Of a stretch of DNA of 64,000 bases, positions 1,459 to 20,989 are shown in pieces (position 1 is the stretch's first letter; each line of letters starts with the position of its first letter). Under the pieces are notes generated by a model. That model made no database searches. It saw nothing but the letters and a program-made list of their open reading frames with translations, and was not told where the DNA came from. The position numbers were made by a program, and so were the translations under genes. The stretch comes from an uncultured Anaerolineales bacterium (GTDB lineage: Bacteria; Chloroflexota; Anaerolineae; B4-G1), in contig CAZEQC010000008.1 of NCBI GenBank assembly GCA_964514285.1, positions 6,181-70,180 on the forward strand. Reading direction: 5' to 3'.

Positions 1459-1468
1459 AGGCGTTCAT

Positions 1469-2986: not shown

Positions 2987-4504
2987 ATGGCCAAATCCAC
3001 CGACCAGCCCCTCCATCAGTCGCCTCAGTTCCGCGTCCTCAACGACCGTCAGATCGAGAAGGTCTACTATGCCACGCTGGCTTGCCTGGAACGGACTGGG
3101 GTCGACGTGCACAACGAACAGGCCCGCCAACTGCTGTCCAACGCTGGCGCGCGCCTGGACGGTGCCCGGGTTTTCGTGCCGCCCCACATCGTCCAGGACG
3201 CCGTTGCCGCAGCGCCGAAATCTTTCGCGCTGTGGGGCCGCCCCGTCGGGGACGCTCGTGAGCAGGACGAGTGCTACAAGGTTGAGGTCGGCTCACCCGC
3301 TCTGGATCAGCCTACCATCGACGCCGTCAACTTCGGGCCCGGGCCAACGTGCACCTACTTCATCGATCCCGAGAGCGGGGAGCGCCGCCGGTCGCAGCGT
3401 GGCGATCCTGGACTGGCGGCCCTGGTCTGCGATGCCCTGGACAACCTTGACTACGTTATGGGACTGGCGCTTATCGATGACGTCACGCCAGAGCTGTCCC
3501 CCATCTACGAATTCGCCGAGATGGTGGTCAACACCGCCAAACCCATCCTCCCCTGGGCCTACGCCCCCGATAACGTGTCCGACATCTACCAGATCGCCTT
3601 GGCCATAGCCGGGGACGAGGAACACCTTTGCGCCCGCCCATTCCTGGCGCTGTTCACCACGTTCCAGTCGCCGCTGCAACACACACGCGAGGACTTGGCC
3701 AACTTGCTTTGGACCGTAGAGCGCGACCTGCCCGTCGTCTACCTGGGAGGAGGATCCGCGGGGAGCACGGCGCCTATCACCGGCGCGGGCACGTTGGTCA
3801 TCACCTTGGCGGGTATGCTCAGCGGGTTGACCATCGCTCAGCTCAAGCGGCGTGGCGCCCCCCTGTGCGTCGGCAGCGCGCCCCAGCCAACGGATCTTCG
3901 CACGGCCCGCCCTGCCTACGGCGGGCCAGAGATGAGCCTCTATGCCGCGGCCATCTCCGACGTCTGCCGCTACCTCGGCCTGCCGTATATGGGCACAGCC
4001 GGTGCCTCCGAGTCGAAGGCCGTCGACCAACAAGCAGCCATCGAGAGCGCCATCCAGGTCCTGCTCTCCGGTCTCAGTGGTTCGACGCTGATCCACGACG
4101 TCGGGTTCCTCGACTGCGCCGACATTGGCTCGCTGGAGATGCTGGTGATGAACGACGAGATCATCGCCATGACGCGCCGCATCACCAGAGGCTTGGAAAT
4201 CAGCGACGAGACGTTGATGCTGGACCTGATCGACAAGGTAGGACCTGGCGGGCACTTCCTGGCCGAGCAAGAGACCGCCAGACGATGCCGCCAGGAGGTC
4301 TGGGTGCCGTCGCTGATGGACCGCACGCCCTGGGAGAGCTGGGCAGCCGCTGGCGCCGAGACGATGACCGACCGTCTCAAACGACGCGTTCAGACCATCG
4401 TCAGCACACACCAGGCGCCTCCTCTGCCCAATGGCGCGGCGGAGCGGATCAGCGAGCTGCTCCAATCGGCCGAGGCCCGCTATAGCCGACCCCGCGTCCC
4501 GTAG
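2987..4504 (+). CDS. MttB-superfamily (trimethylamine methyltransferase-like, non-pyrrolysine) methyltransferase
   Basis: 505 aa with no in-frame TAG. Family-typical stretches are 'GPGPTCTYFIDPESGERR', 'GGGSAGSTAPITGAGT' and 'GPGGHFLAEQETARR'. AGGAGAG RBS. Confidence 0.85.
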   Translation: MAKSTDQPLHQSPQFRVLNDRQIEKVYYATLACLERTGVDVHNEQARQLLSNAGARLDGARVFVPPHIVQDAVAAAPKSFALWGRPVGDAREQDECYKVEVGSPALDQPTIDAVNFGPGPTCTYFIDPESGERRRSQRGDPGLAALVCDALDNLDYVMGLALIDDVTPELSPIYEFAEMVVNTAKPILPWAYAPDNVSDIYQIALAIAGDEEHLCARPFLALFTTFQSPLQHTREDLANLLWTVERDLPVVYLGGGSAGSTAPITGAGTLVITLAGMLSGLTIAQLKRRGAPLCVGSAPQPTDLRTARPAYGGPEMSLYAAAISDVCRYLGLPYMGTAGASESKAVDQQAAIESAIQVLLSGLSGSTLIHDVGFLDCADIGSLEMLVMNDEIIAMTRRITRGLEISDETLMLDLIDKVGPGGHFLAEQETARRCRQEVWVPSLMDRTPWESWAAAGAETMTDRLKRRVQTIVSTHQAPPLPNGAAERISELLQSAEARYSRPRVP

Positions 4505-5213: not shown

Positions 5214-6596
5214 CTAGGCTTCGCTTGCCTCTTCCGGTCCCTCTGCATCTCTCTCTTCCGCATCTGACGCCTCACCTGCATATGAGACATCCTCATGTGA
5301 GACATCCTCGTCGAATGCCTCTCCCTTGGCGATAGCCACCAGGCGCTCCACCGCCAAGTTGGCCAGCATACGGTTGCGTATGTCGTGGCGTCGTGCAGGA
5401 GCGCTGAGAGCCTCCCGCACCTCGCCCGCCCGCTCGCCGTACTGCTCGCTCGATTCCACGATCTGGGCGTCCAGCGCCTCATCGCTGATCTCGAGGCCCT
5501 CCTGATGGACGATCTCACCCAACACCAGCGACCGATCCAGAGAGGCTTTCGTGTCCTCTTTCAGCTCCTCCCGCAGATCCTCCATCGTCCGCCCCTGGAT
5601 CCGGAGGTAGTCCTCAAGCATCAAATGCTCTCGGCGCTCGATCTGTTGCTCGTAGTCCTCCAGGGCGTCCTCCAGGGCCTCTTCCAGCACCATCGGCGGA
5701 TACGACACCTCAGCCTGGTCAATGACGGCCTCCAGGACGCGTTCGGCATAATTGCCTTCCACTTCGGCTCGCTCTCTCTCCTCCAGCCGCTGGCGGATCG
5801 ATGCCCTCAGTTCTTCGAAAGACTCGTAGTTACCCACCGTCCGGGCCAGATCATCATCCAGCTCCGGCAGAATCCGTTCGTACACGTCCTCCACGTCGAT
5901 ATCGAAGGTCACCTCGGCCCCGGCCAATTCGTCAGCTTGGAAGTCCTCGGGCAGCACCAGCGTGACGGTCGACACCTCCCCCTCCTCCAGGCCAATCAGC
6001 GCATCCACGAGCCCCGGAATCGCTATCTCCTCCGGGTCGAGCAAGAGACGAGCCTCTTCCTCGTGGAAGAACTCCACCCCCTCCGACGTCCGGCCAACCA
6101 GCTCGCCCACCAGCAGATCGCCCTCGGCCGCTGGGCGATCCAGCGGAGCTAGAACCGCGTTCTGCTCCCGCACGCCCTCCAGGGCCTCGTTCACCATCTC
6201 CTCGGGCACCTCCATCGCCGAGGGTTCCAGGCGATACGACCGGTAGTCCCCCAGATCAACGTCGGGCGCCAGCGGCACCGTGAAGGTCAACGTCAGCGGA
6301 TCGAATGACGTCTCCTCCAACGTCCCTGGCGCATAGGGTGTGATGTCCTTCTCCTCCAGGGCCTCACGGTACAAATCCTCAGCCAATGTGCCGACCAACT
6401 CCTGCTGGAAGACCCGCTCTCCAAATCGCTGCACCACGACGTCGGGGGGCGCCTTCCCCTTGCGGAAGCCAGGAATGTCGACCTCCCTTGAGATCTCCCG
6501 GGCGGTTCGTCGCCGGGCGCGCTCGACCCGTTCTTCGTCGACGACAATAGTCAGAGATAACTGGCGTTCGCCAGCCGATTCGGTCGTGATCTTCAA
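5214..6596 (-). CDS. tig: trigger factor
   Basis: N-terminal 'MKITTESAGERQLSLTIVVDEERV...FRKGKAP' ribosome-binding signature. Located directly upstream of clpP. Acidic C-terminal tail. Confidence 0.9.
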   Translation of the reverse strand: MKITTESAGERQLSLTIVVDEERVERARRRTAREISREVDIPGFRKGKAPPDVVVQRFGERVFQQELVGTLAEDLYREALEEKDITPYAPGTLEETSFDPLTLTFTVPLAPDVDLGDYRSYRLEPSAMEVPEEMVNEALEGVREQNAVLAPLDRPAAEGDLLVGELVGRTSEGVEFFHEEEARLLLDPEEIAIPGLVDALIGLEEGEVSTVTLVLPEDFQADELAGAEVTFDIDVEDVYERILPELDDDLARTVGNYESFEELRASIRQRLEERERAEVEGNYAERVLEAVIDQAEVSYPPMVLEEALEDALEDYEQQIERREHLMLEDYLRIQGRTMEDLREELKEDTKASLDRSLVLGEIVHQEGLEISDEALDAQIVESSEQYGERAGEVREALSAPARRHDIRNRMLANLAVERLVAIAKGEAFDEDVSHEDVSYAGEASDAEERDAEGPEEASEA

Positions 6597-6682
6597 CGCG
6601 GTATGCCTCCTGTACTAAACTGTCTGTCCCCACCTCGCACACAATAGGCGCGCCTCGCGCGCCTAAGTGCCGCCGCAAACAA

Positions 6683-6764
6683 TGGGGAAGGCGGGACTCG
6701 AACCCGCACGGGTTACCCCACGTGATCCTAAGTCACGCTCGTCTGCCAATTCCGACACTTCCCC
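6683..6764 (-). tRNA. tRNA-Leu (anticodon UAG), type II with long variable arm; CCA not encoded
   Basis: The reverse complement folds by hand. Acceptor GGGGAAG/CTTCCCC plus A. Anticodon arm CGTGA-CTTAGGA-TCACG. Variable arm GGGGTAACCC. T arm GCGGG-TTCGAGT-CCCGC. Confidence 0.85.
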
Positions 6765-6778
6765 GCTTGCGAAATAGT

Positions 6779-6807
6779 ATTATAATGGCTCGTCCGTTTT
6801 CACGCAA
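6779..6807 (-). promoter_or_regulatory. sigma70-like promoter for tRNA-Leu (TTGCGT-N17-TATAAT)
   Basis: On the minus strand the -35 is 6807..6802 and the -10 is 6784..6779, 14 nt upstream of the mature tRNA 5' end. Confidence 0.45.
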
Positions 6808-6809
6808 GG

Positions 6810-6838
6810 TTGACAAGACCCTCCATCATTGGTATCAT
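6810..6838 (+). promoter_or_regulatory. sigma70-like promoter (TTGACA-N17-TATCAT) upstream of the PGI/PMI gene
   Basis: Perfect -35 at 6810-6815 and -10 at 6833-6838. It sits back-to-back with the tRNA promoter. Confidence 0.45.
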
Positions 6839-6998
6839 CCTCCGGCTGCGCTGCAGCACAGATCCCGAAAAAGCAATAACCATACAGCTCCCCCGAGAGA
6901 CGTCTATCCACAACAGCGGCGATAGCTAGCGCGCTGAGGCTGCATGTTATCTCGATGGGGGTCCAATCCTGCTCTTCATCGCCCAAGGAGGACCACGA

Positions 6999-8102
6999 TT
7001 GATGAACCTGGATCAACCTGAAACACTCAAACACCTCGATCCCGACAGTATGTTGGAACGCATCAGCGAACTGCCGAAGCAATGCCGAGAGGCCTGGGCT
7101 CAAGCCCAAGAGCTGACCTTGCCTCGCGGTTTCGGCGCCATCGATAACCTCGTTATCGTCGGTATGGGCGGTTCGGCTATCGGAGGCGCCTTGCTCCAGG
7201 ATCTGGTCTCAGATCAGTGTGATGTCCCCATCACTCTCGTCCGCGGCTACACGCTGCCCTCTTTCGCAGCGGGCCCGAGCACCCTAGTGATAGCCTGCAG
7301 CTACTCCGGCAACACCGAGGAGACGCTGTCCTGCTTCAATCAGGCGCTCGACAGAGACGCTCGCGCGCTGGCTATTACCACTGGAGGCACGCTTGCAGAC
7401 CTGGCTCGCGAGGCGCAGGCGCCGGTCGTCCAATTCAACTACCAATCGCAACCCAGGGCTGCCCTCGGCTACGCCTTCATCCTCCTCCTCGGAACCGTCC
7501 ACCGGCTGGGCCTCATCCGCGACTACGGGGAGGATGTCGCAGAGGCAGCTACCGTTATGGAGCATCGTCAGAAGGATATCGGCATCCAGACGCCTACCGC
7601 TGATAACCCCGCCAAACAACTCGCCCAACACATCACGGGTCAGCTCTCCATCGTCTATGGCGCTGGGTTCCTGGGCGCCACGGCCAATCGCTGGAAGACC
7701 CAGTTCAACGAGAACGCCAAGAACTGGGCCTTCTTCGAGCTCCTTCCAGAACTCAACCACAACGCCGTCGTGGGGCTCGGCATCCCGGATGTGGTGCAAC
7801 AGAACAGCATCGTCGTTATGCTCCGTTCGAACCTGGATCGGAGACGTATCCAGGAGAGGTGGGACGTGACCGCCGAGTTGATGGATCGCGAGGGGGTGAC
7901 AGCTAGACAGGTCTGGGGACACGGCGATAGCAAGCTCGCTCAGATGCTCTCGCTGATCCATCTCGGGGACTACGTAAGCTATTACGTCGCCATGCTCAAC
8001 CAGGTCGACCCCACACCGGTCGACACCATCGCCTTTCTCAAGCAGCGACTGGCCGAGCTTGGCAGCGTCATCGACGAGCCAAGAACCCAAGAACAAGGAT
8101 AA
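6999..8102 (+). CDS. bifunctional phosphoglucose/phosphomannose isomerase (SIS domain)
   Basis: 'LVIVGMGGSAIGGALLQDL', 'VIACSYSGNTEETL' and C-terminal 'GDYVSYYVAMLNQVDPTPVD'. Start is TTG 6999 or ATG 7002, after AAGGAGG. Confidence 0.75.
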   Translation: MMNLDQPETLKHLDPDSMLERISELPKQCREAWAQAQELTLPRGFGAIDNLVIVGMGGSAIGGALLQDLVSDQCDVPITLVRGYTLPSFAAGPSTLVIACSYSGNTEETLSCFNQALDRDARALAITTGGTLADLAREAQAPVVQFNYQSQPRAALGYAFILLLGTVHRLGLIRDYGEDVAEAATVMEHRQKDIGIQTPTADNPAKQLAQHITGQLSIVYGAGFLGATANRWKTQFNENAKNWAFFELLPELNHNAVVGLGIPDVVQQNSIVVMLRSNLDRRRIQERWDVTAELMDREGVTARQVWGHGDSKLAQMLSLIHLGDYVSYYVAMLNQVDPTPVDTIAFLKQRLAELGSVIDEPRTQEQG

Positions 8103-9634: not shown

Positions 9635-9866
9635 CCCGAGAACACATCCCCTCGGGCGAAGGGCTTCCGAAGTCTTCAGCGGGATCCCCCAAGGCGCCCA
9701 AGACTCCAGTACGCAGGGCCGATTGCCTTGGAGAAGCAACCTCACAGACTTCGGAAGTCCTCTGCTGAACGAGATAGGCTCTCCACGCCCCCTGCCGCGT
9801 GCCCGGATAGAACAGACACCCCATGGCCTGGGCATCGTGCACCGTCGCTCGCTCTTTACCAATTCC

Positions 9867-9895
9867 TTGACAAGTTATGAACAACCTGGTATCAT
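9867..9895 (+). promoter_or_regulatory. sigma70-like promoter (TTGACA-N17-TATCAT) overlapped by 11-bp-phased ACA repeats (CarH-operator-like)
   Basis: -35 at 9867-9872 and -10 at 9890-9895. ACA at 9870-9872 and 9881-9883, and TCA at 9892-9894, are spaced exactly 11 bp apart. Confidence 0.45.
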
Positions 9896-9932
9896 ACCGA
9901 CTGATTGGAAGCATAGTCAAGTGAGGAATGGT

Positions 9933-11288
9933 ATGCCAAAGAATGCTTATCGAGATCCCATCTACAACCTGAAAGCCGTCGTCGAGAAGACGGGCGTCAG
10001 TGCTGACGCCCTCCGAGCGTGGGAGCGCCGTTACGGCCTTCCCAATCCTGCCCGCACCGAGGCCGGCCACCGCGTCTACTCAAGACGCGACATCGACATG
10101 ATCAAGTGGCTGGTCGCCCGACAGGACGAGGGGCTCAGAATCGGGCGGGCCGTCAAGTTGTGGCGGAGCCTGGAGGGGGAGGGACAAGACCCCCTCCTCA
10201 GCATGCCTTTCCCCTCAGAGGCCCGACAAGAGAGCGTGGCAGCGGGTGACACCATGGCTGAGTTGCGGGAGGCCTGGATATCGGCCAGCCTCGCTTTCGA
10301 TGAGAGGACGGCGGAACACGCCCTGACACGAGCTTTTGCCATGTACCCCCCTGAGGTTGTTTGCTCGCAGATCATCGCCACGGGAATCGCCGAGATCGGC
10401 GAGCAATGGTGTGAGGGTGAGGCCACACCGCAGCAAGAGCATTTTGCCTCACAGTTGGCGGTCCGCCGCCTGGAGAGGTTGATAGCGGCAACCCCGCCGC
10501 CCACCCGTCGCGGTCGAATCCTGACCGCTTCCGCATCGAGAGAGGAGCACACCATCGGTCTGCTGACGATGACGCTCCTCCTGCGGCGAGCTGGCTGGCA
10601 TGTGGTCTACCTTGGGGTTGACGTGCCGCATGAGCAGATGGAGCAGACCATCGAGGCTACACAACCAGATTTGATCGTCCTGGTAGCGCAGCAGCTTTAC
10701 ACTGCGGCCAGCGTCCTTGAGATGGCCCGCATGGCCCAGGATCAGGATCTGTCAGCAGCCTTTGGCGGCCGCATCTTCGATGAAGAGCCTAGGCTCCGGG
10801 AGCGCATCCCCGGCCACTACCTGGGATCGTCCTTTGAACAGGCGGTGCGGGAGACAGAGCGGCTGATGACCACGGCCTACGCTACGCCGGATCCGGAGCC
10901 GACGCCGGAGGCCTTGGTTCACGCTCGGGCCCACTTCCGCGATAGGCGCGTCGACATAGAGTCGGACATCTGGCAGGCCATGCACCCTCAGCCTCTGGAC
11001 CACGACACCTTGAACGAACTGAACCAGATGGTGGGCCGCAGCATCGACGCCGCCCTGAGGTTCGGCGACATAGAGTTCGCGGCACATCACCTCGACTGGA
11101 TCGAGGGGCTGAGCGAATGTCATCGACCCCCGACGGAGCAGATCGAACCTTACCTCCAGGCCTACCATCGAGCAGCGGAGAGGCATCTCGACGAGCGTGG
11201 GGCCGTCATCGTCGAATGGCTGGCGCAGCAGGTCGGACCCGCCTCCGAGGACGAGCAGGCTGACAAGGCCGTGGGAAGCGACGGATGA
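9933..11288 (+). CDS. CarH/LitR-type MerR-family regulator with a cobalamin-binding domain and an extra C-terminal domain of about 135 aa
   Basis: MerR HTH 'YNLKAVVEKTGVSADALRAWERRYGLPNPARTEAGHRVYS'. W-x9-EH motif 'WCEGEATPQQEH' (nt 10407-10442). B12 loop 'EEHTIG' (nt 10542-10559). ATG 9933 follows GTGAGGAA. Confidence 0.8.
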   Translation: MPKNAYRDPIYNLKAVVEKTGVSADALRAWERRYGLPNPARTEAGHRVYSRRDIDMIKWLVARQDEGLRIGRAVKLWRSLEGEGQDPLLSMPFPSEARQESVAAGDTMAELREAWISASLAFDERTAEHALTRAFAMYPPEVVCSQIIATGIAEIGEQWCEGEATPQQEHFASQLAVRRLERLIAATPPPTRRGRILTASASREEHTIGLLTMTLLLRRAGWHVVYLGVDVPHEQMEQTIEATQPDLIVLVAQQLYTAASVLEMARMAQDQDLSAAFGGRIFDEEPRLRERIPGHYLGSSFEQAVRETERLMTTAYATPDPEPTPEALVHARAHFRDRRVDIESDIWQAMHPQPLDHDTLNELNQMVGRSIDAALRFGDIEFAAHHLDWIEGLSECHRPPTEQIEPYLQAYHRAAERHLDERGAVIVEWLAQQVGPASEDEQADKAVGSDG

Positions 11289-11452
11289 TCACCGGACAGT
11301 GGCCCATGGTCATAGACACGACCCGGGTCGGCTGACCGCCCGTTGGCATCAGGTCCACGGGTGAGAAACTCGCGCTATGGGACATGTTCATCGTTGCGTA
11401 TCGGAGATGCCGAAGAGAGCTGATGCAGCAAGCCCAGACAGGAGGTTAGTAG

Positions 11453-12769
11453 GTGCAAAGACGTCGTCTCGCCTTGATTATCGGTTTCGTGTTCATTGAG
11501 CTGCTCGGCTATAGTCTTTTCTTGCCGTTGTTGCCCTTCTACGCTGGGTCTTTGGGCGCCAGCCCCAGCCTGATCGGTCTCCTCATCGCCTCCAACGCGG
11601 TGGCGCAGCTCCTGGCAGCCCCTCTTATCGGACGCTACTCGGATACCTGGGGCCGCCGCCCCATGCTCCTCTTCAGTATCGTGGGAACGGCCGCCAGCTT
11701 CGTCTTGCTGGCTCTGGTCGAGCCCCTCGGTCGCTGGACGGCTGGCCTCACGGCCGGCAGGCTCACGGTGGACGCTGCCGCCCTGGGTTGGCTCTTCTTC
11801 AGCCGCATTCTGGACGGCTTTGCCGGAGGTAACGTCTCGCTGGCCAGGGCCTACATCACCGACATCACCGATGAAGAGAATCGCGCCAAGGGCCTTGGGA
11901 TGATCGGCGCCGCTTTCGGGACCGGGTTCATCATCGGCCCCGCCCTGGGCGGCACGCTCAGCAACTGGCCCTACGTGACGCAGATCGTTGAGGGCATCGG
12001 TCTGTCGCGCTTTGCTGTGCCGGCCTTTGCCGCGCTGGCACTCTCGGTGATCAACTTCGTCGGCGTGGCGCTCTGGCTACCCGAGTCCCTCACGCCCGAG
12101 CGACGGGCCAAGCTGGCAGAACGGGCGCGGGCCATCCTTCCCATTCGTGCACTGCGAGAGGCCCTGGACCGCCCCCGCGTCAGGCCCCTACTGCAAACCC
12201 GCTTCTTCTACCGCCTGGCCTTCACCATGTTCACGGCCAACTTCGCCCTTTACACCCGCTTCCGTTTTGGCTTGACCGATCAGTCCACCAGCTACATCCT
12301 CACGTACGTCGGCGTCCTCGTCGTACTGGTGCAGGGCTTTGTCGTCGGTCAGCTCGTCGATCGCTTTCCGGAGAAGAAGATCATCGTCACCGGCGTGGGG
12401 CTGCTCGCCGTGGCCCTGTTCGGCTGGGCTCTCGCGCCTACCGTGGGCTTCTTGCTGGTCGTGCTGGCCCTCCTACCCCTTTCCGGAGGCACCCTGAACA
12501 CTGTCACCAACAGCGCCCTCACCAAGGCCGTCCGCCAAGAGGACGTGGGCGGCACGCTCGGGCTCTCCACCTCACTGGATAGCCTCACACAGATCCTGGC
12601 GCCCATTATCGGCGGGTTCCTCATCGACGAGCTCGGAGCGTGGGCAGTGGGCGCGGCTGCGGCCCTCACGATGGCCGGGGTGGTTCTCTATGCCTGGCGC
12701 TGCTTGGTCGTGAACGCCACCCAGTGCTGGGACGAGGAAGGCCAGGAGATCGTCGCCGAGACCGCATAA
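11453..12769 (+). CDS. MFS transporter (drug:H+ antiporter-like)
   Basis: 12 TM. 'GRYSDTWGRRPMLL' motif A and 'LDGFAGGNVSLARAYITD'. GTG start after AGGAGG. Confidence 0.85.
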   Translation: MQRRRLALIIGFVFIELLGYSLFLPLLPFYAGSLGASPSLIGLLIASNAVAQLLAAPLIGRYSDTWGRRPMLLFSIVGTAASFVLLALVEPLGRWTAGLTAGRLTVDAAALGWLFFSRILDGFAGGNVSLARAYITDITDEENRAKGLGMIGAAFGTGFIIGPALGGTLSNWPYVTQIVEGIGLSRFAVPAFAALALSVINFVGVALWLPESLTPERRAKLAERARAILPIRALREALDRPRVRPLLQTRFFYRLAFTMFTANFALYTRFRFGLTDQSTSYILTYVGVLVVLVQGFVVGQLVDRFPEKKIIVTGVGLLAVALFGWALAPTVGFLLVVLALLPLSGGTLNTVTNSALTKAVRQEDVGGTLGLSTSLDSLTQILAPIIGGFLIDELGAWAVGAAAALTMAGVVLYAWRCLVVNATQCWDEEGQEIVAETA

Positions 12770-12779
12770 GGAGACGAGC

Positions 12780-13256
12780 ATGGGGCGCCTGCGACCGGAG
12801 AAGCTGCACGTCACCTACACCTCGCACGCCGGACCTCAGGGCCCGATCATCCCGCGCTGCTATACGCTCACCCATTCGGACTGGACCGGCGATCTGTTCC
12901 TCACTGTTGGCCCCACATTCAACAAGAGCCAGATTTCGGGGCTCTATGTCCGCCTCATGCGGGATGAGGTTCTGGGTGAATGGGAGGAGGAGCAGTCGCA
13001 GTCAACCCCGGTCCTCCGCGTACACTGTCACGTCAGCGGTGGCGTGGCCCTCGGCCCAGCCAGCTTCCGGTTCGCCATCTTCAGACGAGAGCTCCCCTTG
13101 GTCCTTGAGGCGCTCCGTTACGGCGATCAAAGACTCTTCGAGGCACGACCGGCGTTGGATCAGGCTCCCATTCGGGTCCACTTTCACGCCGTTCAGCCCC
13201 GTTACGACAGACTCGATGACTGGGGAGTCCCCGGTGACTATCGATATGAGGGCTAG
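12780..13256 (+). CDS. Stay-Green (SGR) family protein, bacterial Mg-dechelatase homologue
   Basis: Collinear with the plant SGR core: 'PRCYTLTHSDWTGDLFLTVG', 'SQISGLYVRLMRDEVLGEW', 'LRVHCHVSGG', 'FRFAIFRRELPLVLEALRYGD', 'VHFH', 'DDWG'. AAGGAG RBS. Confidence 0.8.
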   Translation: MGRLRPEKLHVTYTSHAGPQGPIIPRCYTLTHSDWTGDLFLTVGPTFNKSQISGLYVRLMRDEVLGEWEEEQSQSTPVLRVHCHVSGGVALGPASFRFAIFRRELPLVLEALRYGDQRLFEARPALDQAPIRVHFHAVQPRYDRLDDWGVPGDYRYEG

Positions 13257-13288
13257 CGCCGTGCTTCCGCGGACCCAGGGCATAGGCG

Positions 13289-14182
13289 ATGCACACGAAG
13301 GCACAAGGTAGCATGCGCTACATCAAACGCTGGTGGTGGATCCTTCTCCTGATCCCGCTCCTGGCGATGGGCGGCTTCATCATCTGGGCCGAATCAACGC
13401 CCGCCCCCATGCCCGAGGCGACTGCGGCGTTGGAGACCCCCGCCCAGACCGACGGAGTCGTGGTAACAACCCGTGACTGGCTGGTCTTCCGCCCTATGGC
13501 CAAGGAACCGACCAGTGGCCTGATCCTCTATCCGGGCGGACGTGTCGAGGCTAAGGCTTACGCTCCGCTGGCTCGAGACATCGCCGCCGAGGGTCACTTG
13601 GTCGTCATCACCCCCGTGCCGCTCAACCTCGCCTTCTTTGCCCCGAACCGGGCATCCGAGGTGATGGACGCCTTTCCCAGCGTAGCCCACTGGGCGGTCG
13701 GCGGACACTCCCTCGGCGGGGCTATGGCAGCCCGCTTCGCGCACCGGCATCCATCGGCGGTACAAGGTCTGGTGCTCTGGGCCGCCTACCCCGCCGAGAG
13801 CGACGACCTGTCGGAGGAGAACCTGACGGTGGTGTCCATCTATGGCACACGCGACGGCCTCGCCACCCCGGAGACGATCGATACATCGCGCCCGCTGCTG
13901 CCGCCGGACACACGCTGGGTGGCGATCGAGGGGGGCAACCACGCCCAGTTCGGTTGGTACGGCCCCCAGAGTGGTGACCACCCCGCTACCATCACCCGGG
14001 ATGATCAGCAGCGACAGATCGTTGCGGCCACCGCCAGATTGCTGCAGCAGCTGCCCCGTGATGCACGTGATCCGAACGAGGCCCAGCGACACACTCACCG
14101 GCTCAGATCGATGAACCGGGATCAAACCATAGTTAGAATAGACGGACGCAGACGAGAGGCTGAGAATAAGAACGATGACTGA
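13289..14182 (+). CDS. membrane-anchored alpha/beta hydrolase (dienelactone hydrolase/chlorophyllase-like fold)
   Basis: N-terminal TM 'WWWILLLIPLLAMGGFIIW' and nucleophile elbow 'GGHSLGG'. Alternative start at 13313. Confidence 0.7.
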   Translation: MHTKAQGSMRYIKRWWWILLLIPLLAMGGFIIWAESTPAPMPEATAALETPAQTDGVVVTTRDWLVFRPMAKEPTSGLILYPGGRVEAKAYAPLARDIAAEGHLVVITPVPLNLAFFAPNRASEVMDAFPSVAHWAVGGHSLGGAMAARFAHRHPSAVQGLVLWAAYPAESDDLSEENLTVVSIYGTRDGLATPETIDTSRPLLPPDTRWVAIEGGNHAQFGWYGPQSGDHPATITRDDQQRQIVAATARLLQQLPRDARDPNEAQRHTHRLRSMNRDQTIVRIDGRRREAENKNDD

Positions 14183-15170
14183 CAACACTAAGAAGCGCCC
14201 CAAGGTCGGATGGTTCAAGGCTGGACTTATCGCCTTGAGCGTCCTCTTGACCGTCGTCCTGATCGGCCCGTTCCTCGTGCCGGTCCCGCCCCTGGAGGAC
14301 ACCGTCCCACCGGAGCAGCTGGCCGATCCCGAGAGCCGCTTCATTGAGATCAATGACCTGGAGGTGCACTACAAGACCACCGGCTCCGGGGAACTCAGGA
14401 TGATCCTCCTCCATGGCTTCGGTGCCAGCGTCTTCTCCTGGCGGGAGGTGATGGAGCCCCTGGGTGAGCTGGGCACTGTCGTCGCCTTCGATCGCCCCGC
14501 CTTCGGCCTCACTGAGCGCCCCCTATCCTGGGAGGAAGGCGCCAACCCTTACGCCCCAGAGGCCCAGGTGAATCTGGTGATAGGCTTGATGGACGCTCTC
14601 AACATCGACGAGGCCGTGCTCGTCGGCAACTCGGCCGGCGGCACCGTGTCCGTCAACGCCGCCTTGGCTCATCCAGACCGTGTTGAGGCCCTGGTCTTGA
14701 TAGACGCCGCCATCTACCAGGGAGGCGGCGCGCCCTCGTGGATACGCCCACTGCTGCACGTACCCCAGGTCGACCGCCTGGGCCCGCTGCTGGCCCGCCA
14801 GATCGCCGTTCGCGGGGATGCCTTCCTGGAGAGCGCCTGGCACGACCCCAGCAAGATCACCGCAGAGATACGCGCCGGCAGTCGCAAGCCGCTGCGGGTC
14901 GATAACTGGGATCACGCGCTTTGGGAGCTGACCAAGGCATCAGGACCGGCCAACCTGGAGGAAAAGATCCCCTCCCTCGACACCCCTTCGCTCGTCATCA
15001 CCGGGGACGACGATCGCATCGTCCCTGCCGAGCAGAGCGTTCGCCTGGCCGATGAGCTCCCGCAGGCCGAATTATCCGTCATTCCTGACTGCGGCCACGT
15101 GCCCCACGAGGAATGCCCAGAGCCCGTACTTGACGCCATGCGGCCCTTCTTGACGAGGTTAGAGGACTAA
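14175..15170 (+). CDS. membrane-anchored alpha/beta hydrolase (MhpC/pheophytinase-like subfamily)
   Basis: N-terminal TM, 'LLHGFGASVFSWREV', nucleophile 'VGNSAGG', C-terminal 'DCGHVPHEECPE'. Overlaps the previous gene by 8 nt. Confidence 0.8.
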   Translation: MTDNTKKRPKVGWFKAGLIALSVLLTVVLIGPFLVPVPPLEDTVPPEQLADPESRFIEINDLEVHYKTTGSGELRMILLHGFGASVFSWREVMEPLGELGTVVAFDRPAFGLTERPLSWEEGANPYAPEAQVNLVIGLMDALNIDEAVLVGNSAGGTVSVNAALAHPDRVEALVLIDAAIYQGGGAPSWIRPLLHVPQVDRLGPLLARQIAVRGDAFLESAWHDPSKITAEIRAGSRKPLRVDNWDHALWELTKASGPANLEEKIPSLDTPSLVITGDDDRIVPAEQSVRLADELPQAELSVIPDCGHVPHEECPEPVLDAMRPFLTRLED

Positions 15171-15220: not shown

Positions 15221-15919
15221 ATGAACAACGCCGATCAAGAGCAGGCCGACTTCATTCGAATCGAGGATCTTTGTAAAGACTTCCAGGAGGGGCCTCACGT
15301 GCGGCGCGTCCTGCGTGGCGTCAACGCTGCCTTCGGACATGCAGAATCAGTGGCTATCGTTGGCGAGAGTGGAAGTGGCAAGAGCACCTTGCTCAACCTT
15401 ATCAGCGGGATCGACGATGCCGACTGCGGCGCCATCTGGCTCGATGGTCAGAATCTGAACGCCCTTGACGAGCGCCAGCGCACGCTCTTCCGCCGTCATC
15501 ACATCGGTTTCATCTTCCAGTTCTTCAATCTGCTCCCCACGCTGACCGTATGGGAGAACGTCGTCCTCCCGCTGGAGCTGAACGGTATCAACGGCGCAGA
15601 AGCCCAGCAGCGGGCCCAATCGCTGCTCGATGCCGTGGGGTTGGGCGACCGCGGCGACTCATTCCCCGACCGGCTCTCCGGCGGTGAGCAGCAGCGCGTC
15701 GCGATCGCGCGGGCGCTGGTTCATGACCCGCGCCTGGTGCTAGCCGACGAGCCAACCGGGAATCTCGACGAGGAGACCGGGCATCAAATCCTCATGCTGC
15801 TCGACCGTCTCACCCGCCAGGCGGGTAAAAACCTAATCCTGGTCACTCACAGCGCCGACGCCGCGGCTTACGCCGACCACATCTTCTACCTGAACGACGG
15901 GCGGCTCATCGATGGCTGA
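15221..15919 (+). CDS. ABC transporter ATP-binding protein (MacB/LolD type)
   Basis: Walker A 'GESGSGKST', signature '[15 protein letters not shown]' and Walker B '[12 protein letters not shown]'. Confidence 0.9.
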
Positions 15920-18542
15920 GCGACTGATCAGCGCCGAGGGACGTCGACCGGATGAGCCTCGCGCCACGCTGGCTCCACGCACGTTGTGGAACGTCGGCTG
16001 GCGCTACTTCACGCGTCACGCCTGGCAAAGCTTCTTGATGATCCTGGGGATCGCTCTGGGTGTCGCCGTCGTCGTCGCCGTCGACCTGGCCAACGTCAGT
16101 GCCAGCCGAGCCTTCGATCTCAGCGTTGACGCCGTGGTTGGCCGGGCGACGCACCACGTCATTGGAGGGCCGCAGGGCTTGGACGATGCCATCTACGCTG
16201 AGCTCCGGCGGGCAGGTGTCGTGCGGGAGGCCGCCCCCGTCGTCACGGCCTATGCCACATCGCCTCAGCTGGAGGGACGCACCGTGCAGCTTCTGGGTGT
16301 CGACCCCTTCGCCGAAGCTCCTTTCCGTTCCTACGTCTCGGCTGGGGCGTCGACCTCCGTCACCCAGTTGACCACCTTCCTCACCAAGCCGGGCGCCGTG
16401 CTCATCGGCGCCAACCTCGCCGAGCAGTATCAGATCGAGCGCGGCGAGACGCTCCAGCTCGACGTGGCTGGTCGCCAGCGCACAATCGAAGTCGCCGGCC
16501 TCCTGGAGCCCAGTGACGACCTCAGCCGTCGCGCCCTGGAGGGCCTCATCATCGCCGACATCGCCACCGCCCAGGAGCTGACCAATCGCGTCGGCCGTCT
16601 CGACCGCATCGACCTGATCCTACCGGAGCCAAGCGAGGCTAAGGTGACCAGGATCGATGCTCTACTCGACAGGAGCGCACAAGGCACGGCCGACGTCCGC
16701 GTGCAGCCTGTGGAGACCCGCACTGGAGCCACCGAGCAGATGACGGCTGCCTTTCGTCTAAACCTCACGGCTCTCAGCCTGCTGGCGCTCGTCGTCGGGA
16801 TGTTTCTGATCTACAACACGATGACCTTCTCCATCGTCCAGCGACGTTCGTTGTTTGGCATCCTGCGTTCTCTCGGCGTCACCCGCCGCGAGGTGTTTGC
16901 GCTGGTGCTTGCCGAAGCCTTGATCATCGGAATCATCAGCGCAGGCCTGGGGCTCGTTCTGGGCATCGTCTTGGGACAATCGGCCGTACAGATGGTTACG
17001 CGCACCATCAACGATCTTTACTTCGTGCTCACAGTCCAAAGCGTCGACATACCCCTGGTCAGTCTGCTCAAGGGAGCGCTTCTCGGCATTGGAGCCACGC
17101 TGGCAGCGGCCGCACCGCCAGCACGCGAGGCGGCCACCGTCCCGCCGCGCGCCGCCCTTTCACGCTCTGGCCTGGAGAGCAAGGTCGAGCGAGCCGTCCT
17201 TTGGGCCGCCGCCTCTGGCGTTGCGCTCATCGCGGCAGGAGCCGCCAGCCTGCTCGTGCCTACCACGAGCCTAATCATCAGCTTCGGCGGCACCTTCTTG
17301 GTCGTTCTCGGCTTCGCACTGCTCACCCCTCTGGTGACCAAGACCTCGATGCAGGTCGTCAGACCAGGTCTACAGCGCGCTCTGGGCGTCCTGGGGCGCA
17401 TGGCGCCGCGGGATGTGAGCAAGTCCCTCAGCCGTACTGCCATCGCCGTGGCCGCGTTGATGGTCGCTATGGCCGTCACCATCGGCATCAGCCTTATGAT
17501 CACCAGCTTCCGTCAGACCGTCATCGTCTGGCTCAGTGACGCGCTCCAGGGCGACATCGTCGTCTCTGCGCCCAGCGTGTCCGGCCTTCAGGACGTGACA
17601 CCCGTCGACGCCCAGGCGGCGTCCGTCGCCTCCGGCCATCCCAACGTCGCCCGCGTGGATCTGCTCCGCTCGACCACGGTGGAGTCGCCCCGAGGACCGA
17701 TCGACATTGAGGCCGGCAACAGTCCAGACTATGGCGATGGCCTCCGCTATCGCGCCGCCGATCAGCCCCCAGCCGAGACGTGGGACGTCGTTCGCGAGGG
17801 GAGAGCTGTCATCATCTCCGAGCCTTTGGCTAATCGCCTGGACCTCTCGACCTCGGACGAGCTCCGTCTCTATACCAACCAGGGCCTGCGCGCCTTCCCT
17901 ATCGCCGGCATCTACTACGACTACGCCTCGACCGAGGGAACGGCCATTATGTCGCTGTCGACCTACCGTGACGCCTGGGACGACGACACCGTCACGGCCC
18001 TGGTCGTCCAACTCAAGCCCGAAGCCGACCCCGATCAGACGGCGCGAGATCTCGAGCAGAGCTTGGCGCCGATCCAGGGCCTGCTTGCCCGCCCCAACCA
18101 GACGATCCGCCAGGCTGCCTTGGCCATCTTCGACCGCACGTTCGCAATCACAGGAGCTCTCCAGGCACTCGCCACCATCGTCGCCTTCATCGGCGTCCTC
18201 AGCGCCCTGCTGGCCCTCCAATTGGAGAAGCAGCGCCAATACGGTATCCTGCGGGCTATCGGCCTGACCGTTCGCGAGCTCCGCAGCCTGATCTTCCTGG
18301 AGACCGGCCTGATGGGCGCTGTCGCCGGCCTCCTGTCTTTGCCTGCTGGCCTTGCCCTCGCCGTGATCCTGATCTACGTCATCAACCGCCGATCCTTCGG
18401 CTGGACCCTCCAGATGGTTGTGAAGGCAGCTCCTTTCTTGGAGGCGCTGATCGTCTCCCTGGTTGCTTCGCTGCTCGCCGGTATCTATCCAGCGCTCCGT
18501 ATGGGAGAGATGGCCCCAGCCGAGGCCCTGCGGTATGAATAA
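15912..18542 (+). CDS. ABC transporter permease with two FtsX-like domains (YbbP/MacB-like)
   Basis: 876 aa. Two blocks of 4 TM (FtsX/MacB_PCD architecture) separated by large extracytoplasmic domains. Overlaps the ATPase gene by 8 nt. Confidence 0.85.
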
Positions 18543-18592: not shown

Positions 18593-18621
18593 TTGACAGC
18601 AAGGGCAAAAGACGTCATAAT
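18593..18621 (+). promoter_or_regulatory. sigma70-like promoter (TTGACA-N17-CATAAT)
   Basis: -35 at 18593-18598 and -10 at 18616-18621, about 90 nt upstream of the PCD start. Confidence 0.4.
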
Positions 18622-19089: not shown

Positions 19090-19932
19090 ATGCCAGTAAA
19101 GATCGTCACCGACAGCACCTGCGACCTGCCCAGGGAGGTCGTCACGGATCTCGACATCACCGTTGTTCCGCTGTACATCAATGTCGGTCAGGAGAGCTAC
19201 CTGGACGCCGTCGATATGACGCGCCAGGAGTTCTATGAACGGCTCCCACACTTCGATCATCACCCGCAGACCGCCTCGCCCGGCCCCGAGATGTTTCGAG
19301 AGACCTACGAGCGGCTGGCGCAAGAAGGGGCCGACGAGGTGCTCTCGATCCATATCTCTATCAGCCTCAGTGGCACGCTCAACACCGCCAAACTGGCCGC
19401 TAAGGCCACCGACGCCCTCCCGGTCAGCGTCTTCGACTCCAAACAGCTCAGTATCGGCACGGGGTTTCTGGTGCAGGCAGCGGCCAAGGCTGCTGCTGCC
19501 GGGCAGTCCATCAGCGAGATCATCGAGATGCTTAAGGAGAAGACCAGGAGAACGCACCTCGCTGCCGCCCTCGACACGTTGGAATTCCTCCAGCGCAGCG
19601 GGCGTATGAGCTGGGCGGTCTCCAAGATCGGCGGCCTTCTCAAGATCAAGCCCCTCCTCACCATGCACGACGGGAATCCAGGTGTCGAACAGGTGCGCAC
19701 CAGCAAACGCGCCTTCCGGCGCCTGATCGACAAGCTGACGGACCTCGCCCCACTGGAGGAGCTGGCCCTGGTGCACACCAACGCTCCCGAGAAAATCGAG
19801 GAGCTCCGCCAACGGGCCAGGCATCTCTTCCCCGAGGGGAAGGAACCGGTCACCGTCAACGTGACCCCCGTCATCGGGACCCACATCGGGCCCGGGGCTG
19901 CGGGCTTCGCCTGCGTTTCTGCGGGCGAGTGA
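19090..19932 (+). CDS. DegV family fatty-acid-binding protein
   Basis: 'VKIVTDSTCDLP', 'TASPGPEMF' and 'SIHISISLSGTLNTAKLAA' are typical DegV blocks. Confidence 0.85.
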   Translation: MPVKIVTDSTCDLPREVVTDLDITVVPLYINVGQESYLDAVDMTRQEFYERLPHFDHHPQTASPGPEMFRETYERLAQEGADEVLSIHISISLSGTLNTAKLAAKATDALPVSVFDSKQLSIGTGFLVQAAAKAAAAGQSISEIIEMLKEKTRRTHLAAALDTLEFLQRSGRMSWAVSKIGGLLKIKPLLTMHDGNPGVEQVRTSKRAFRRLIDKLTDLAPLEELALVHTNAPEKIEELRQRARHLFPEGKEPVTVNVTPVIGTHIGPGAAGFACVSAGE

Positions 19933-20086: not shown

Positions 20087-20989
20087 ATGCGCTTCATCGT
20101 CACCGGCGGGACGGGTCTGATCGGTCAGGCGCTGAATGCCAGCCTGGTCGCCGACGGCCACCAGGTGATCGTCCTCAGCCGCCGCCCAGAGCGCGCCCCC
20201 GCGATGCCGGACGGCGTCCGCGTCGTGCAGTGGGACGCCCGCACAGCCGAGGGCTGGGGCCACTGGGCCGATGGCGCCCAGGCCATCGTCAACCTCGCCG
20301 GCGCCCCTCTCAACCGACGCTGGACGCCGCGCTACAAGCGCGTCATACGTGACAGCCGGGTCAACGCCGGTCGCGCCGTGGTCGACGCCGTGAAGAGAGC
20401 CGACCAGAAGCCCCAGGTCGTGATTCAGGCGTCCGGCGTGGGCATCTACGGCCCCTGTGGCGACGAGGTAATCACCGAAGAGGCAGAACCCGGAGAGGGC
20501 TTCCTGGGACGGACCGCTGTCGCATGGGAGGCATCTACGGGACCGGTCGAAAACCAGGGCGTCCGTCGGGCCATCATCCGCAGTGGTGTCGTAATCACCA
20601 TGGAGGGTGGCGCCTTCCCGCTCCTGGCGCTGCCGTATCGCCTCTTCGTCGGCGGCCCCCTCGGCAGCGGAGATCAGTGGCTTCCCTGGATCCACATGGA
20701 GGACGAGGTGCGGGCCATTCGCTTCCTCATCGGGCACGAGGCTGCCAAGGGCCCCTTCAACCTCTCCGCGCCCCATCCCCTCACCAACGCCGAGTTCGGC
20801 CGTGCCTTGGGGCGGGTGATGGGTCGGCCTGCTCTGCTCCGGGTGCCCTCCTTCGCCATCCGGCTCGTCCTGGGGGAGATGAGCACCGTGGTGCTGCATG
20901 GCCAGCGGGCGATCCCGAAGCGATTGGTGGAGCTCGGATTCGGCTTTCAATATCCGGAGGCCGAGGCCACACTGCGGGACTTGTTATGA
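20087..20989 (+). CDS. TIGR01777-family NAD(P)-binding epimerase-like protein (SDR fold + DUF1731)
   Basis: 'MRFIVTGGTGLIGQAL' Rossmann motif and C-terminal 'GQRAIPKRLVELGFGFQYPE'. Confidence 0.8.
   Translation: MRFIVTGGTGLIGQALNASLVADGHQVIVLSRRPERAPAMPDGVRVVQWDARTAEGWGHWADGAQAIVNLAGAPLNRRWTPRYKRVIRDSRVNAGRAVVDAVKRADQKPQVVIQASGVGIYGPCGDEVITEEAEPGEGFLGRTAVAWEASTGPVENQGVRRAIIRSGVVITMEGGAFPLLALPYRLFVGGPLGSGDQWLPWIHMEDEVRAIRFLIGHEAAKGPFNLSAPHPLTNAEFGRALGRVMGRPALLRVPSFAIRLVLGEMSTVVLHGQRAIPKRLVELGFGFQYPEAEATLRDLL

Follow-up and report, generated by a model that had tools for sequence, protein, structure and literature searches.

Organization of the carH-SGR cluster

The stretch of DNA analyzed here, termed the window, comprises 64,000 nts of contig CAZEQC010000008.1 from an uncultured Anaerolineales bacterium (assembly GCA_964514285.1), and it carries a gene for a light-sensor repressor followed by genes for a transporter, a Stay-Green (SGR) homologue and two alpha/beta hydrolases. 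An earlier reading made from the sequence alone (hereafter the sequence-only reading) had proposed that these genes constitute a light-gated cluster for chlorophyll breakdown. All five open reading frames (ORFs) are present, consecutively and on the + strand, and their Pfam identities agree with the earlier assignments. The regulator gene, carH, lies in an ORF at 9723-11288 and likely starts at ATG 9933, behind a GAGG motif, so that 9933-11288 encodes a product of 451 aa. It is followed by the gene for a major facilitator superfamily (MFS) transporter of the Tet/DHA1 type (11453-12769; 438 aa; GTG start behind AGGAGG; MFS_1 188.9 bits), the SGR gene (12780-13256; 158 aa; Staygreen PF12638 161.4 bits) and the genes for a fold-5 esterase with a GHSLGG elbow, termed ABH1 (13289-14182; Abhydrolase_5 201.8 bits), and for an alpha/beta hydrolase with a GNSAGG elbow, termed ABH2 (14175-15170; Abhydrolase_1 100.6 bits). 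The nearest NCBIfam model of the transporter is that of Tet(A/B/C/D) efflux proteins (156.5 bits, under its cut-off).

Ten nts separate the MFS and SGR genes and 32 nts separate SGR from ABH1, while ABH1 and ABH2 overlap by 8 nts (14175-14182), as had been described. The gap between carH and the MFS gene, also pointed out before, measures 164 nts (11289-11452). The motifs named in the products were all recovered (W-x9-EH and E-x-H-x-x-G in the regulator, GHSLGG in ABH1, GNSAGG in ABH2), and the regulator matched the Pfam models MerR_1 (48.6 bits), B12-binding_2 (38.6 bits) and B12-binding (50.1 bits). The common strand of the five genes is not distinctive, as nearly all identified genes from 559 to ~43500 lie on the + strand, the exceptions being a minus-strand trigger-factor gene (5214-6596) and an adjoining tRNA.

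Two further + strand genes follow, identified with Pfam as those of an ABC ATPase (15221-15919), 50 nts downstream of ABH2, and of a MacB/FtsX-type permease (15912-18542), which overlaps the ATPase gene by 8 nts. No convincing terminator was found from carH through the permease gene, and the order ABH2-ABC-FtsX is kept in four related loci (L082, L083, L084, L116; 62-83% identity). The ATPase and permease genes are probably the tail of the carH transcription unit. The next strong promoter-like site after the permease gene (TTGACA-17-CATAAT, 18593-18621, +) lacks direct repeats; it is likely the start of the next unit and hence the boundary of the light-controlled one.

A predicted CarH-type operator at the carH promoter and in related loci

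The promoter region flagged in the sequence-only reading (9861-9895) contains a near-consensus promoter, P_carH, at 9867-9895 on the + strand: a sigma-70-type TTGACA-17 nt-TATCAT with a TG extension, matching 11 of 12 consensus positions and lying 38 nts 5' of ATG 9933. Three tandem 11-bp direct repeats (TTACCAATTCC, TTGACAAGTTA and TGAACAACCTG) at 9856-9888 (+), with the -35 box in the middle repeat, form a predicted CarH-type operator. Published CarH operators consist of three to four tandem 11-bp direct repeats nnnnTnnACAn that overlap the -35 box (PMC9304148). When the window was searched for three TnnACA motifs at 11-bp spacing, the carH promoter was the sole match. A stricter Thermus-type form, nAnnTnnACAn repeated three times with at most 3 mismatches, gave no match in the window; the published consensus is looser than this form. 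No B12 riboswitch or other RNA element was found in the cluster.

To follow this element outside the window, we used 161 related loci, designated by L numbers, among them 80 SGR-centred loci from a genome scan, which with the window make 81, and 80 ABH2-centred metagenome loci. The same repeats surround the -35 boxes of orthologous carH promoters in L003, L012, L035, L051 and L063, and a position weight matrix was trained on these five promoters and that of the window. The window operator scored 29.4 bits with this matrix and the next unrelated site in the 64 kb scored 8.0 bits. The operator is also kept at the carH promoters of L081, L083, L084 and L085. The SGR-centred loci and the window (1.17 Mb) were then scanned for triple sites of at least 19 bits, the training sites being left out. 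This gave 24 sites at 11-bp spacing, compared with 0-3 at spacings of 8, 9, 10, 12, 13 or 14 bp and a mean of 0.5 sites in 60-bp block shuffles.

Operators recur among the related loci in front of SGR, hydrolase, heliorhodopsin, photolyase, carotenoid, peroxiredoxin and other operons. SGR is located downstream on the same strand at 13 of the 24 non-training sites. It is the first gene behind the operator in L035, L021, L025 and L052, and the operator precedes MFS-SGR in L016, heliorhodopsin-SGR in L013, DUF1475-SGR in L034, MFS-heliorhodopsin-SGR-DUF1295-DUF1722 in L040, peroxiredoxin-SGR-NmrA in L012 and L018, and CrtI-CrtB-SRPBCC-SGR-PlsY-GT2 in L009. Other sites precede carH-SDR-SRPBCC-CrtI-photolyase or DegV-DUF1295-DUF4345-DUF1475. 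The independent ABH2-centred set contained 22 operator sites of at least 17 bits. These were found before carH-MFS-SGR-ABH1-ABH2 (L081, L083, L084, L085), carH-ABH2-photolyase (L118, L139), ABH2-peroxiredoxin (L122, L101, L117), ABH1-ABH2-peroxiredoxin (L138), ABH2-heliorhodopsin (L086), heliorhodopsin-peroxiredoxin (L113) and CrtB (L102, L122). As operators stand before SGR and before hydrolase operons, it is predicted that one and the same repressor acts directly on SGR, ABH1 and ABH2 across Anaerolineae, with or without carH adjacent and with or without SGR adjoining the hydrolases. Light-gated expression, a central claim of the sequence-only reading, is well supported by the predicted operator over the regulator's own promoter and by its conservation, and on this anatomy we hold light gating of the operon to be quite likely.

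The regulator is predicted to be a MerR-fused photocobilin-type protein

CarH proteins are recognized by RxWERRY, Wx9EH and D/ExHx2G/P-x41-SxT/V-x22-27-GG (PMC9304148). In the window regulator, a MerR winged helix is followed by a four-helix bundle with the Wx9EH motif, a Rossmann B12 domain (ExHxxG...GG) and a C-terminal five-helix domain resembling photoglobin. The recognition helix LRAWERRYGLP includes RAWERRY, of which W30, R32, R33 and Y34 are invariant in 44 homologues. The adenosyl-cap motif W159-x9-E169-H170 (WCEGEATPQQEH) is likewise conserved, W159 in at least 90% of the sequences of alignment A5 and E169 and H170 in all of them, and the lower-ligand motif E204-E-H206-T-I-G (EEHTIG) is followed by G278-G279 at the expected distance (24 residues), with the Ser position of SxT/V taken by V in the window protein and by T or A in orthologues. 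The sequence matches the CarH_Tt structure (PDB 5C8D) with 89.7 bits.

The regulator is ~150 aa longer than canonical CarH and so departs from the two-module organization of ~280-300 aa. More than 1000 homologues of 430-465 aa match it over the full length, C-terminal domain included. A Pfam search with the C-terminal 150 aa gave no match. An AlphaFold2 model built from the 44 homologues (pLDDT 86.4) placed an extra five-helix domain at residues ~326-434 (window 10908-11234), with helices mostly at pLDDT ~85-98. The top five Foldseek matches of this model were photocobilins (best 8J2Y, 8J2W and 8J2X; TM 0.80-0.83 normalized to the target, ~335 columns), and CarH 5C8D gave a TM of ~0.64 normalized to the target. 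With the family profile, the alignment to 8J2Y extends across the globin-like domain, up to position 409 (E 3e-22). In SasPcob, biliverdin binding beside the corrin involves Asp270 and Trp296, and the sequence alignment to SasPcob ends before the globin domain. Conserved features of the C-terminal domain are an invariant W429, W389, which at least 90% of sequences have, and an LGD consensus motif. Photocobilins are photoreceptors that carry B12 and biliverdin and react to light throughout the visible range (Zhang et al. 2024, PMC10979010), and the architecture MerR-HTH plus B12 plus photoglobin has been catalogued computationally, without characterization (PMC8717448). Judged by this model, the regulator is a MerR-photocobilin-type protein and not a plain CarH. 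The CarH identity given in the sequence-only reading agrees with RAWERRY, Wx9EH, ExHxxG and the operator and has to be amended for the extra domain.

A side observation concerns corrinoids in the organism. A methylaspartate ammonia-lyase gene (339 bits) adjoins an MttB-family methyltransferase gene (250 bits) at 1409-4504 (+) and, as the MttB family is linked to B12 and other corrinoids, this is an indirect sign that the organism uses them.

A Rieske oxygenase gene remnant between carH and the MFS gene

The spacer between carH and the MFS gene had been suggested as a second site for binding of the regulator. No operator-like sequence was found in 11289-11452 with the matrix. Instead, positions 11285-11449 (+) are occupied by the remains of a Rieske/VanA_C-type oxygenase gene, of which the first 16 and the last 20 codons are kept and ~840 nts are deleted: 11285-11335 translates to MITGQWPMVIDTTRVG and 11387-11449 to FIVAYRRCRRELMQQAQTGG, each followed by a stop codon, and the two peptides correspond to the N-terminus and the C-terminus encoded by an intact gene of 335 aa that occupies this position in L084 and the product of which has Rieske and VanA_C domains. 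Judged by these translations, the spacer is a gene remnant and not a regulatory region. The scar keeps the original ribosome-binding site and start context of the MFS gene. The gap between carH and the MFS gene is ~50 nts or less in L081, L083 and L085. Within the window, a weak promoter-like match (9/12) was found at 11260-11289, across the carH stop codon, and no terminator is present there. As the spacer is a gene scar and the gap in relatives is short, read-through from P_carH is the simplest model for expression of the downstream genes.

Intact orthologues of the lost gene were found in six loci, all with SGR: L084, L033 (in the order Rieske-heliorhodopsin-SGR), L007, L031, L097 and L020. 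In L031 the oxygenase gene (2412-3377) is directly followed by a tocopherol-cyclase-like gene. Of four more orthologues, two belong to light clusters, of which one includes SGR (L162) and the other does not (L164), and two are in unrelated contexts (L163, L165). We considered whether the Rieske gene could encode a step like that of pheophorbide a oxygenase (PAO). Such a role was rejected: Pfam detected no PaO domain in the intact orthologue, its best solved relatives are the N- and O-demethylases NdmA, DdmC and SxtT, and the gene occurs in contexts without SGR. The Rieske oxygenase is a general member of the light gene set and is not evidence for a PAO-like step. The L162 cluster (5458-7993), a further arrangement with a light and UV theme, has SGR followed first by a UvdE-type UV-damage endonuclease and then by the Rieske oxygenase and an MFS transporter, with photolyase, DegV, DUF1475 and DUF1722 upstream.

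SGR and its genomic neighbourhoods

The SGR product aligns with PF12638 over residues 4-154 (profile 2-147 of 147; cut-off 27 bits) and with the crystallized and active Anaerolineae enzyme AbSGR-h (PDB 7Y5Y) at 183.8 bits and 53.5% identity. Alignment A1 shows no variation at residues H32, D34 and D62, which have the same numbering in AbSGR-h, where D34 and D62 mutants are inactive and an H32 mutant is weak (PMC8531759). AbSGR-h removes Mg from chlorophylls a, b and c, chlorophyllide a and protochlorophyllide. The earlier identification of the gene as an SGR homologue is borne out by its closeness to this dechelatase and by the intact catalytic residues. From the identity with AbSGR-h we infer that the window protein may act as a Mg-dechelatase on chlorophyll a and chlorophyllide. 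It has no hydrophobic segment and is predicted to be cytoplasmic. The physiological relevance of the bacterial homologues was stated to be unknown, and the plant pathway is thought to have obtained SGR from such bacteria (PMC8531759).

The 80 SGR loci belong to Anaerolineae, Dehalococcoidia, Actinomycetes, Alicyclobacillus, Bathyarchaeia, Hadarchaeota and Asgard archaea. Neighbours were clustered de novo and annotated with Pfam within a radius of 6 kb of SGR in the 81 loci, and a light marker or operator was present in 36 of them. The commonest neighbour is heliorhodopsin, which is directly adjacent to SGR in 17 loci and on the same strand in 16. MFS transporters are found in 16 loci, AhpC/TSA peroxiredoxins in 13, photolyases in 12, DUF1475 in 11, and DegV, CrtI-like and NmrA-like proteins in 9 each; ABH2, TspO/MBR-like and PNPOx-like proteins occur in 8 each, ABH1 in 6 and CarH in 5. 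The heliorhodopsins (PF18761; representative 335.9 bits) adjoin SGR in Anaerolineae, Dehalococcoidia, Hodarchaeota, Hermodarchaeota and Hadarchaeota, for instance at L013:7463-8792, L033:8044-9357, L040:3886-5248, L043, L049:9117-10471, L060:6788-10468 and L073:5606-6924. Archaeal SGR loci include L060 (Hermodarchaeota, with DUF1295, TspO, heliorhodopsin, NmrA-SGR and photolyase), L049, L059 and L073. The window itself contains no heliorhodopsin gene. In the searched literature, no paper joins heliorhodopsin with Stay-Green, or CarH or LitR with a dechelatase, and SGR is absent from the main text of the paper on heliorhodopsin contexts; the claim that a light-gated SGR set had not been described before stood up to this search. 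The photocobilin-type globin domain on the regulator, the Rieske scar in the gap and the adjacency of SGR and heliorhodopsin, including in Asgard archaea, are new.

Details of three neighbouring proteins were also recorded. A membrane protein of 266 aa, which matches TspO/MBR weakly (30.6 bits against a cut-off of 24), adjoins SGR in 8 loci, Bathyarchaeota and Hermodarchaeota included (L023, L030, L041, L046:5143-6054, L059:9065-9865, L060:5809-6576, L062 and L063); it has no match among solved structures, and the Pfam score is the only evidence for its TspO assignment. The PNPOx-like neighbour has a weak match to 'general stress protein 26' only. The neighbourhoods of L007, L019, L020, L031 (at 3392-4405) and L154 include a tocopherol-cyclase-like protein (PF14249, 82.7 bits), which hints at a branch of the light gene set devoted to lipid-soluble antioxidants.

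The two hydrolases have links beyond SGR

ABH1 matches PDB 9EH6, 'AroC', at 272 bits and ~65% identity, lid loop included. AroC is a thermostable fold-5 esterase that is slow on p-nitrophenyl butyrate and whose natural substrate is not known. The best PDB match of ABH2 is PlaF (6I8W, 82.1 bits), which extends over residues 18-327 and includes the anchor. The candidate catalytic triad of ABH2, S153, D280 and H308, is invariant in alignment A2. NCBIfam matches of ABH2 (acetoin E2-like, PcaD, BchO, BphD) all remain under the cut-offs, with 95 bits against 172.55 for BchO, and a single-sequence AlphaFold2 model (pLDDT 41.7) was too low in confidence for fold comparison. Neither hydrolase matched the chlorophyllase models PF07224 and PF12740 at E <= 0.01. 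Both proteins have one N-terminal hydrophobic helix with a basic N-flank (4-5 K/R; 4 in ABH1) and an acidic C-flank, and the positive-inside rule therefore predicts that their catalytic domains lie outside the membrane.

In the sequence-only reading, the hydrolases were proposed to carry out the pheophytinase or chlorophyllase step next to SGR, and conserved adjacency with SGR was put forward as a test. SGR, MFS, ABH1 and ABH2 do recur together, in rearranged orders, among relatives. Within 6 kb of ABH2, a peroxiredoxin gene was found in 24 of the 80 ABH2-centred loci (4 of the 22 flanked by 3 kb or more in each direction), ABH1 in 22 (9 of 22), an MFS gene in 14 (11 of 22) and SGR in 10 (6 of 22); direct tblastn showed that SGR is also present in L083 and L085. 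Conversely, either hydrolase lies within 6 kb of SGR in 11 of the 81 SGR loci, and both in 3. The synteny of SGR and the hydrolases is thus far above chance, since ~0.3% would be expected for a random single-copy gene, and yet does not exceed the association that each of them has with the other genes of the light set. SGR adjoins heliorhodopsin or MFS more often than a hydrolase, which speaks against the hydrolases as its next step; their assignment as a pheophytinase or chlorophyllase was further not sustained given the lack of a chlorophyllase model match, the outward topology compared with a cytoplasmic SGR and the operator-run ABH2 operons without SGR. A role of the hydrolases in dephytylation is unsupported; their predicted topology weakens it, as does the fact that they belong to the regulon whether or not SGR is present, and lipid repair is an equally good reading of them.

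A probable light-derepressed photoprotection operon with SGR as cargo

Combined, these observations lead us to favour, as the probable explanation, a light-derepressed photoprotection operon in which SGR is genuine cargo and most likely strips Mg from acquired chlorophyll-type pigments. In the dark, the MerR-family photoreceptor loaded with adenosylcobalamin (AdoB12) would bind the three 11-bp repeats over its own -35 box and block RNA polymerase. In the light, the Co-C bond would break, the repressor would be released and transcription would begin, giving a transcript that would run through carH, the Rieske scar and the MFS, SGR, ABH1 and ABH2 genes, and probably on into those of the MacB-type ABC exporter. 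The unit would be one local arrangement of a wider CarH-type regulon directed in non-phototrophic Anaerolineae against damage by light and singlet oxygen, with photolyase, carotenoid genes, peroxiredoxin, heliorhodopsin, DegV, DUF1295 and others as further members. SGR would be a recurrent member under direct operator control and, within a membrane photosensitizer clearance, would strip Mg from chlorophyll-type pigments of phototroph debris. The identities of the genes, the anatomy of promoter and operator, the conservation of the operator before SGR and hydrolase operons and the neighbourhood counts are shown by the analysis. The response to B12 and light, read-through of the whole unit, the substrate of SGR in vivo and any contribution that the hydrolases and pumps make to pigment dephytylation or export are what we infer. 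Clearing of acquired pigments is the most economical guess for SGR because dechelation is the only known activity of the clade and because of the light context.

Several points weigh against this explanation. Its support is wholly comparative, and loci centred on SGR or ABH2 are biased by ascertainment towards finding those genes downstream of sites. The window holds just one operator, so that the four downstream genes depend on the proposed read-through. The regulator scores 124.6 bits with the NCBIfam CarH model (cut-off 400), the Ser position of its SxT/V motif is V (T or A in orthologues), and the extra globin domain may alter oligomerization and spectral response. In 45 of the 81 SGR loci a light marker is absent within 6 kb. 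Removal of Mg alone does not end photosensitization by chlorins, and no intact ring-opening enzyme is encoded in the window. Finally, chlorophyll dechelation by the bacterial homologues was described as a promiscuous activity by Obata et al., as cited in PMC8531759.

Other explanations were weighed as well. SGR could belong to a general operon for photo-oxidative stress and membrane repair that has no connection with chlorophyll, in which the hydrolases remodel damaged lipids, the pumps expel toxic molecules and SGR acts on an endogenous substrate. The nearest solved relative of ABH2, anchor included, is a phospholipase A1, lipid and antioxidant functions are frequent among the neighbours (DegV, PlsY, DUF1295, GT2, peroxiredoxin, tocopherol-cyclase-like, CrtI-like with SRPBCC), the hydrolases are members of the regulon also where SGR is absent, and the literature calls the physiological role of bacterial SGR homologues unknown. 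However, the PlaF match amounts to only 82 bits, the only activity shown for the SGR clade, and a high one, is Mg removal from chlorophyll-type tetrapyrroles, and an endogenous substrate is hard to name because non-phototrophs make no Mg-tetrapyrrole of their own. TspO proteins are tetrapyrrole binders, and the TspO/MBR-like protein adjoining SGR in 8 loci points to a tetrapyrrole substrate. We regard this explanation as possible but doubtful. A dedicated chlorophyll-breakdown pathway, the hypothesis from which the analysis started, would have SGR produce pheophytin and leave the removal of phytol to ABH1 and/or ABH2, in the manner of pheophytinase or chlorophyllase. Substrates or products would be moved by the MFS and ABC pumps and, in relatives, the Rieske enzyme would open the ring as PAO does in plants. 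The order carH-MFS-SGR-ABH1-ABH2 in the window, L081 and L083-L085, MFS-ABH2-SGR in L088 and L130, SGR-ABH2 in L137 and SGR-MFS-ABH1-ABH2 in L116 are in its favour, together with the excess of SGR near ABH2 in well-flanked loci and the Rieske gene in the L084 operon, beside heliorhodopsin-SGR in L033 and as a scar in the window. Since AbSGR-h accepts chlorophyllide, dephytylation outside followed by dechelation inside is chemically possible. Yet neither hydrolase matches a chlorophyllase model of Pfam, the likeness of ABH2 to BchO, PcaD and BphD-type models is generic, and GNSAGG and GNSLGG are versions of a generic GxSxG elbow that is not diagnostic. The hydrolases and SGR are predicted on different sides of the membrane, ABH2 keeps company with peroxiredoxin, ABH1 and MFS more often than with SGR, operator-driven ABH2 operons lack SGR in L118, L139, L122, L138 and L086, few SGR loci have a hydrolase nearby, and the Rieske protein has demethylase relatives and occurs in contexts without SGR. 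Such a pathway appears unlikely to us.

The remaining alternatives concern the control of the genes and the lifestyle of the organism. If the regulator controlled only its own gene, the downstream genes would be light-independent and their adjacency would reflect packing in a co-directional array; the single operator, the 164 nts between carH and the MFS gene and the co-directional genes from 559 to ~43500 fit this. Against it, the 164 nts are a gene scar that retains the original start context of the MFS gene, the gap is short in relatives, only one weak promoter-like match and no terminator are found there, and the same operator lies directly before SGR, MFS-SGR, heliorhodopsin-SGR or ABH2 where carH is elsewhere, so that we consider autoregulation alone improbable. 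That the organism is itself a phototroph and turns over its own (bacterio)chlorophyll is hardly credible. Phototrophic Anaerolineae are said to exist and ABH2 has the sub-threshold BchO match, but there is no photosynthesis or bacteriochlorophyll gene among the annotated window genes, the gene content points to a heterotroph (MttB, aldehyde:ferredoxin oxidoreductase, molybdenum/tungsten cofactor (Moco) biosynthesis) and Bathyarchaeia, Asgard archaea, Dehalococcoidia and Alicyclobacillus have the same SGR clusters.

Under the favoured explanation of a photoprotection operon, the cluster gives a first genomic clue, light protection, to the role of SGR in microbes that make no chlorophyll, and the presence of SGR in a predicted B12-photoreceptor regulon, immediately behind operators in many genomes, argues for work under illumination, when chlorophyll-type pigments turn toxic. 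The adjacency of heliorhodopsin (17 of 81 loci, in bacteria and Asgard archaea) nominates SGR as a candidate partner of this protein, and the operator and regulon are the first predicted for a MerR-fused photocobilin-type receptor. The results also bear on the origin of plant chlorophyll degradation. A bolder proposal, which we put forward as speculative and rather improbable, is a light-gated disarming of foreign chlorophyll in non-phototrophic Chloroflexota and archaea (Asgard, Bathyarchaeia, Hadarchaeota): SGR would be an effector switched by a B12/bilin photoreceptor or physically partnered with heliorhodopsin, outward esterases would remove phytol, Mg would be removed in the cytoplasm, and a Rieske oxygenase (lost here) and MFS/MacB pumps would dispose of the product by destroying or expelling it. 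If true, this would be a prokaryotic forerunner of plant chlorophyll breakdown and would provide heliorhodopsin with a concrete client enzyme. If the chlorophyll reading is wrong, a well-defined, fairly ordinary light-stress operon with unusual cargo remains.

Other features of the window

Further families that neighbour SGR or CarH elsewhere are encoded downstream of the cluster on the + strand, as identified with Pfam: DegV (19090-19932), a DUF1731 SDR protein (20087-20989), a CrtC-like protein (23620-24846), DUF1475 (24909-25229) and DUF1722/YbgA (25168-26226). No operator was found before these window genes, and the same families sit downstream of predicted operators in other loci. The CrtC-like gene, which encodes carotenoid 1,2-hydratase lipocalin domains (203.9 and 160.9 bits), is located between a TruD pseudouridine synthase gene and the DUF1475/DUF1722 genes; no other carotenoid biosynthesis gene was seen among the annotated window genes.

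A Moco riboswitch was identified at 26888-27036 (+; 62.4 bits, gathering score 36), preceded by a promoter-like site at 26810-26838. Downstream of it are the gene for an 855-aa protein with a molybdopterin-oxidoreductase domain (27182-29749) and Mo/W-type ABC transport genes. Moco biosynthesis genes encode a MoaA-like protein (42516-43514) and MoeA (45234-46460), and an aldehyde:ferredoxin oxidoreductase gene is present at 50636-52528 (-). A gene for a tyrosine recombinase of the phage-integrase family (52652-53854, -) lies in a minus-strand block that starts after ~47.5 kb, and the final 6 kb of the window show a shift in both GC and AT skew; the recombinase region may mark the boundary of a mobile element.

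Comparison with known systems

The SGR of the window shares family, length and bacterial class with AbSGR-h, to which it is 53.5% identical with H32, D34 and D62 kept. AbSGR-h was studied as an enzyme only, and that work left aside its physiological role, its regulation and its genomic context. PlaF of Pseudomonas aeruginosa (6I8W), a membrane-anchored phospholipase A1, has the same arrangement as ABH2, in which one transmembrane helix at the N-terminus precedes the alpha/beta-hydrolase domain; the match of ABH2 is limited to 82 bits and PlaF is not known as light-regulated. In the plant PAO/phyllobilin pathway, SGR is followed by pheophytinase (PPH), the Rieske-type pheophorbide a oxygenase and RCCR. 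The window and its relatives likewise have an SGR homologue, serine alpha/beta hydrolases and a Rieske mono-oxygenase, intact in relatives and as a scar here. In contrast with plants, orthology of the hydrolases to PPH or chlorophyllase is unsupported, the Rieske protein lacks a PaO domain, no RCCR is present, the enzymes are predicted in different compartments and the genes belong to a broader stress regulon rather than to a fixed pathway cluster.

The predicted control most resembles that of CarH/LitR in Thermus thermophilus, Myxococcus xanthus and Bacillus megaterium, with which the system shares a MerR protein with RxWERRY, Wx9EH and His-on B12 motifs, autoregulation and, in related loci, photoprotective cargo such as carotenoid genes and photolyase. 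It differs in its cargo, here SGR, two ecto-hydrolases, an MFS pump and a MacB-type pump, and in its regulator, which is ~150 aa longer with a photoglobin-like domain, has the Ser of SxT/V replaced and scores under the CarH cut-off (124.6 against 400 bits). The distal Cys described for the photoglobin domain (PMC8717448) is not conserved in alignment A5. Like the photocobilins 8J2W, 8J2X and 8J2Y, the regulator has a globin-like domain of five helices behind the four-helix bundle and Rossmann domain that bind B12 in this family; whereas the photocobilins characterized so far stand alone or are fused to an enzyme (GGDEF), the one predicted here is fused to a MerR domain.

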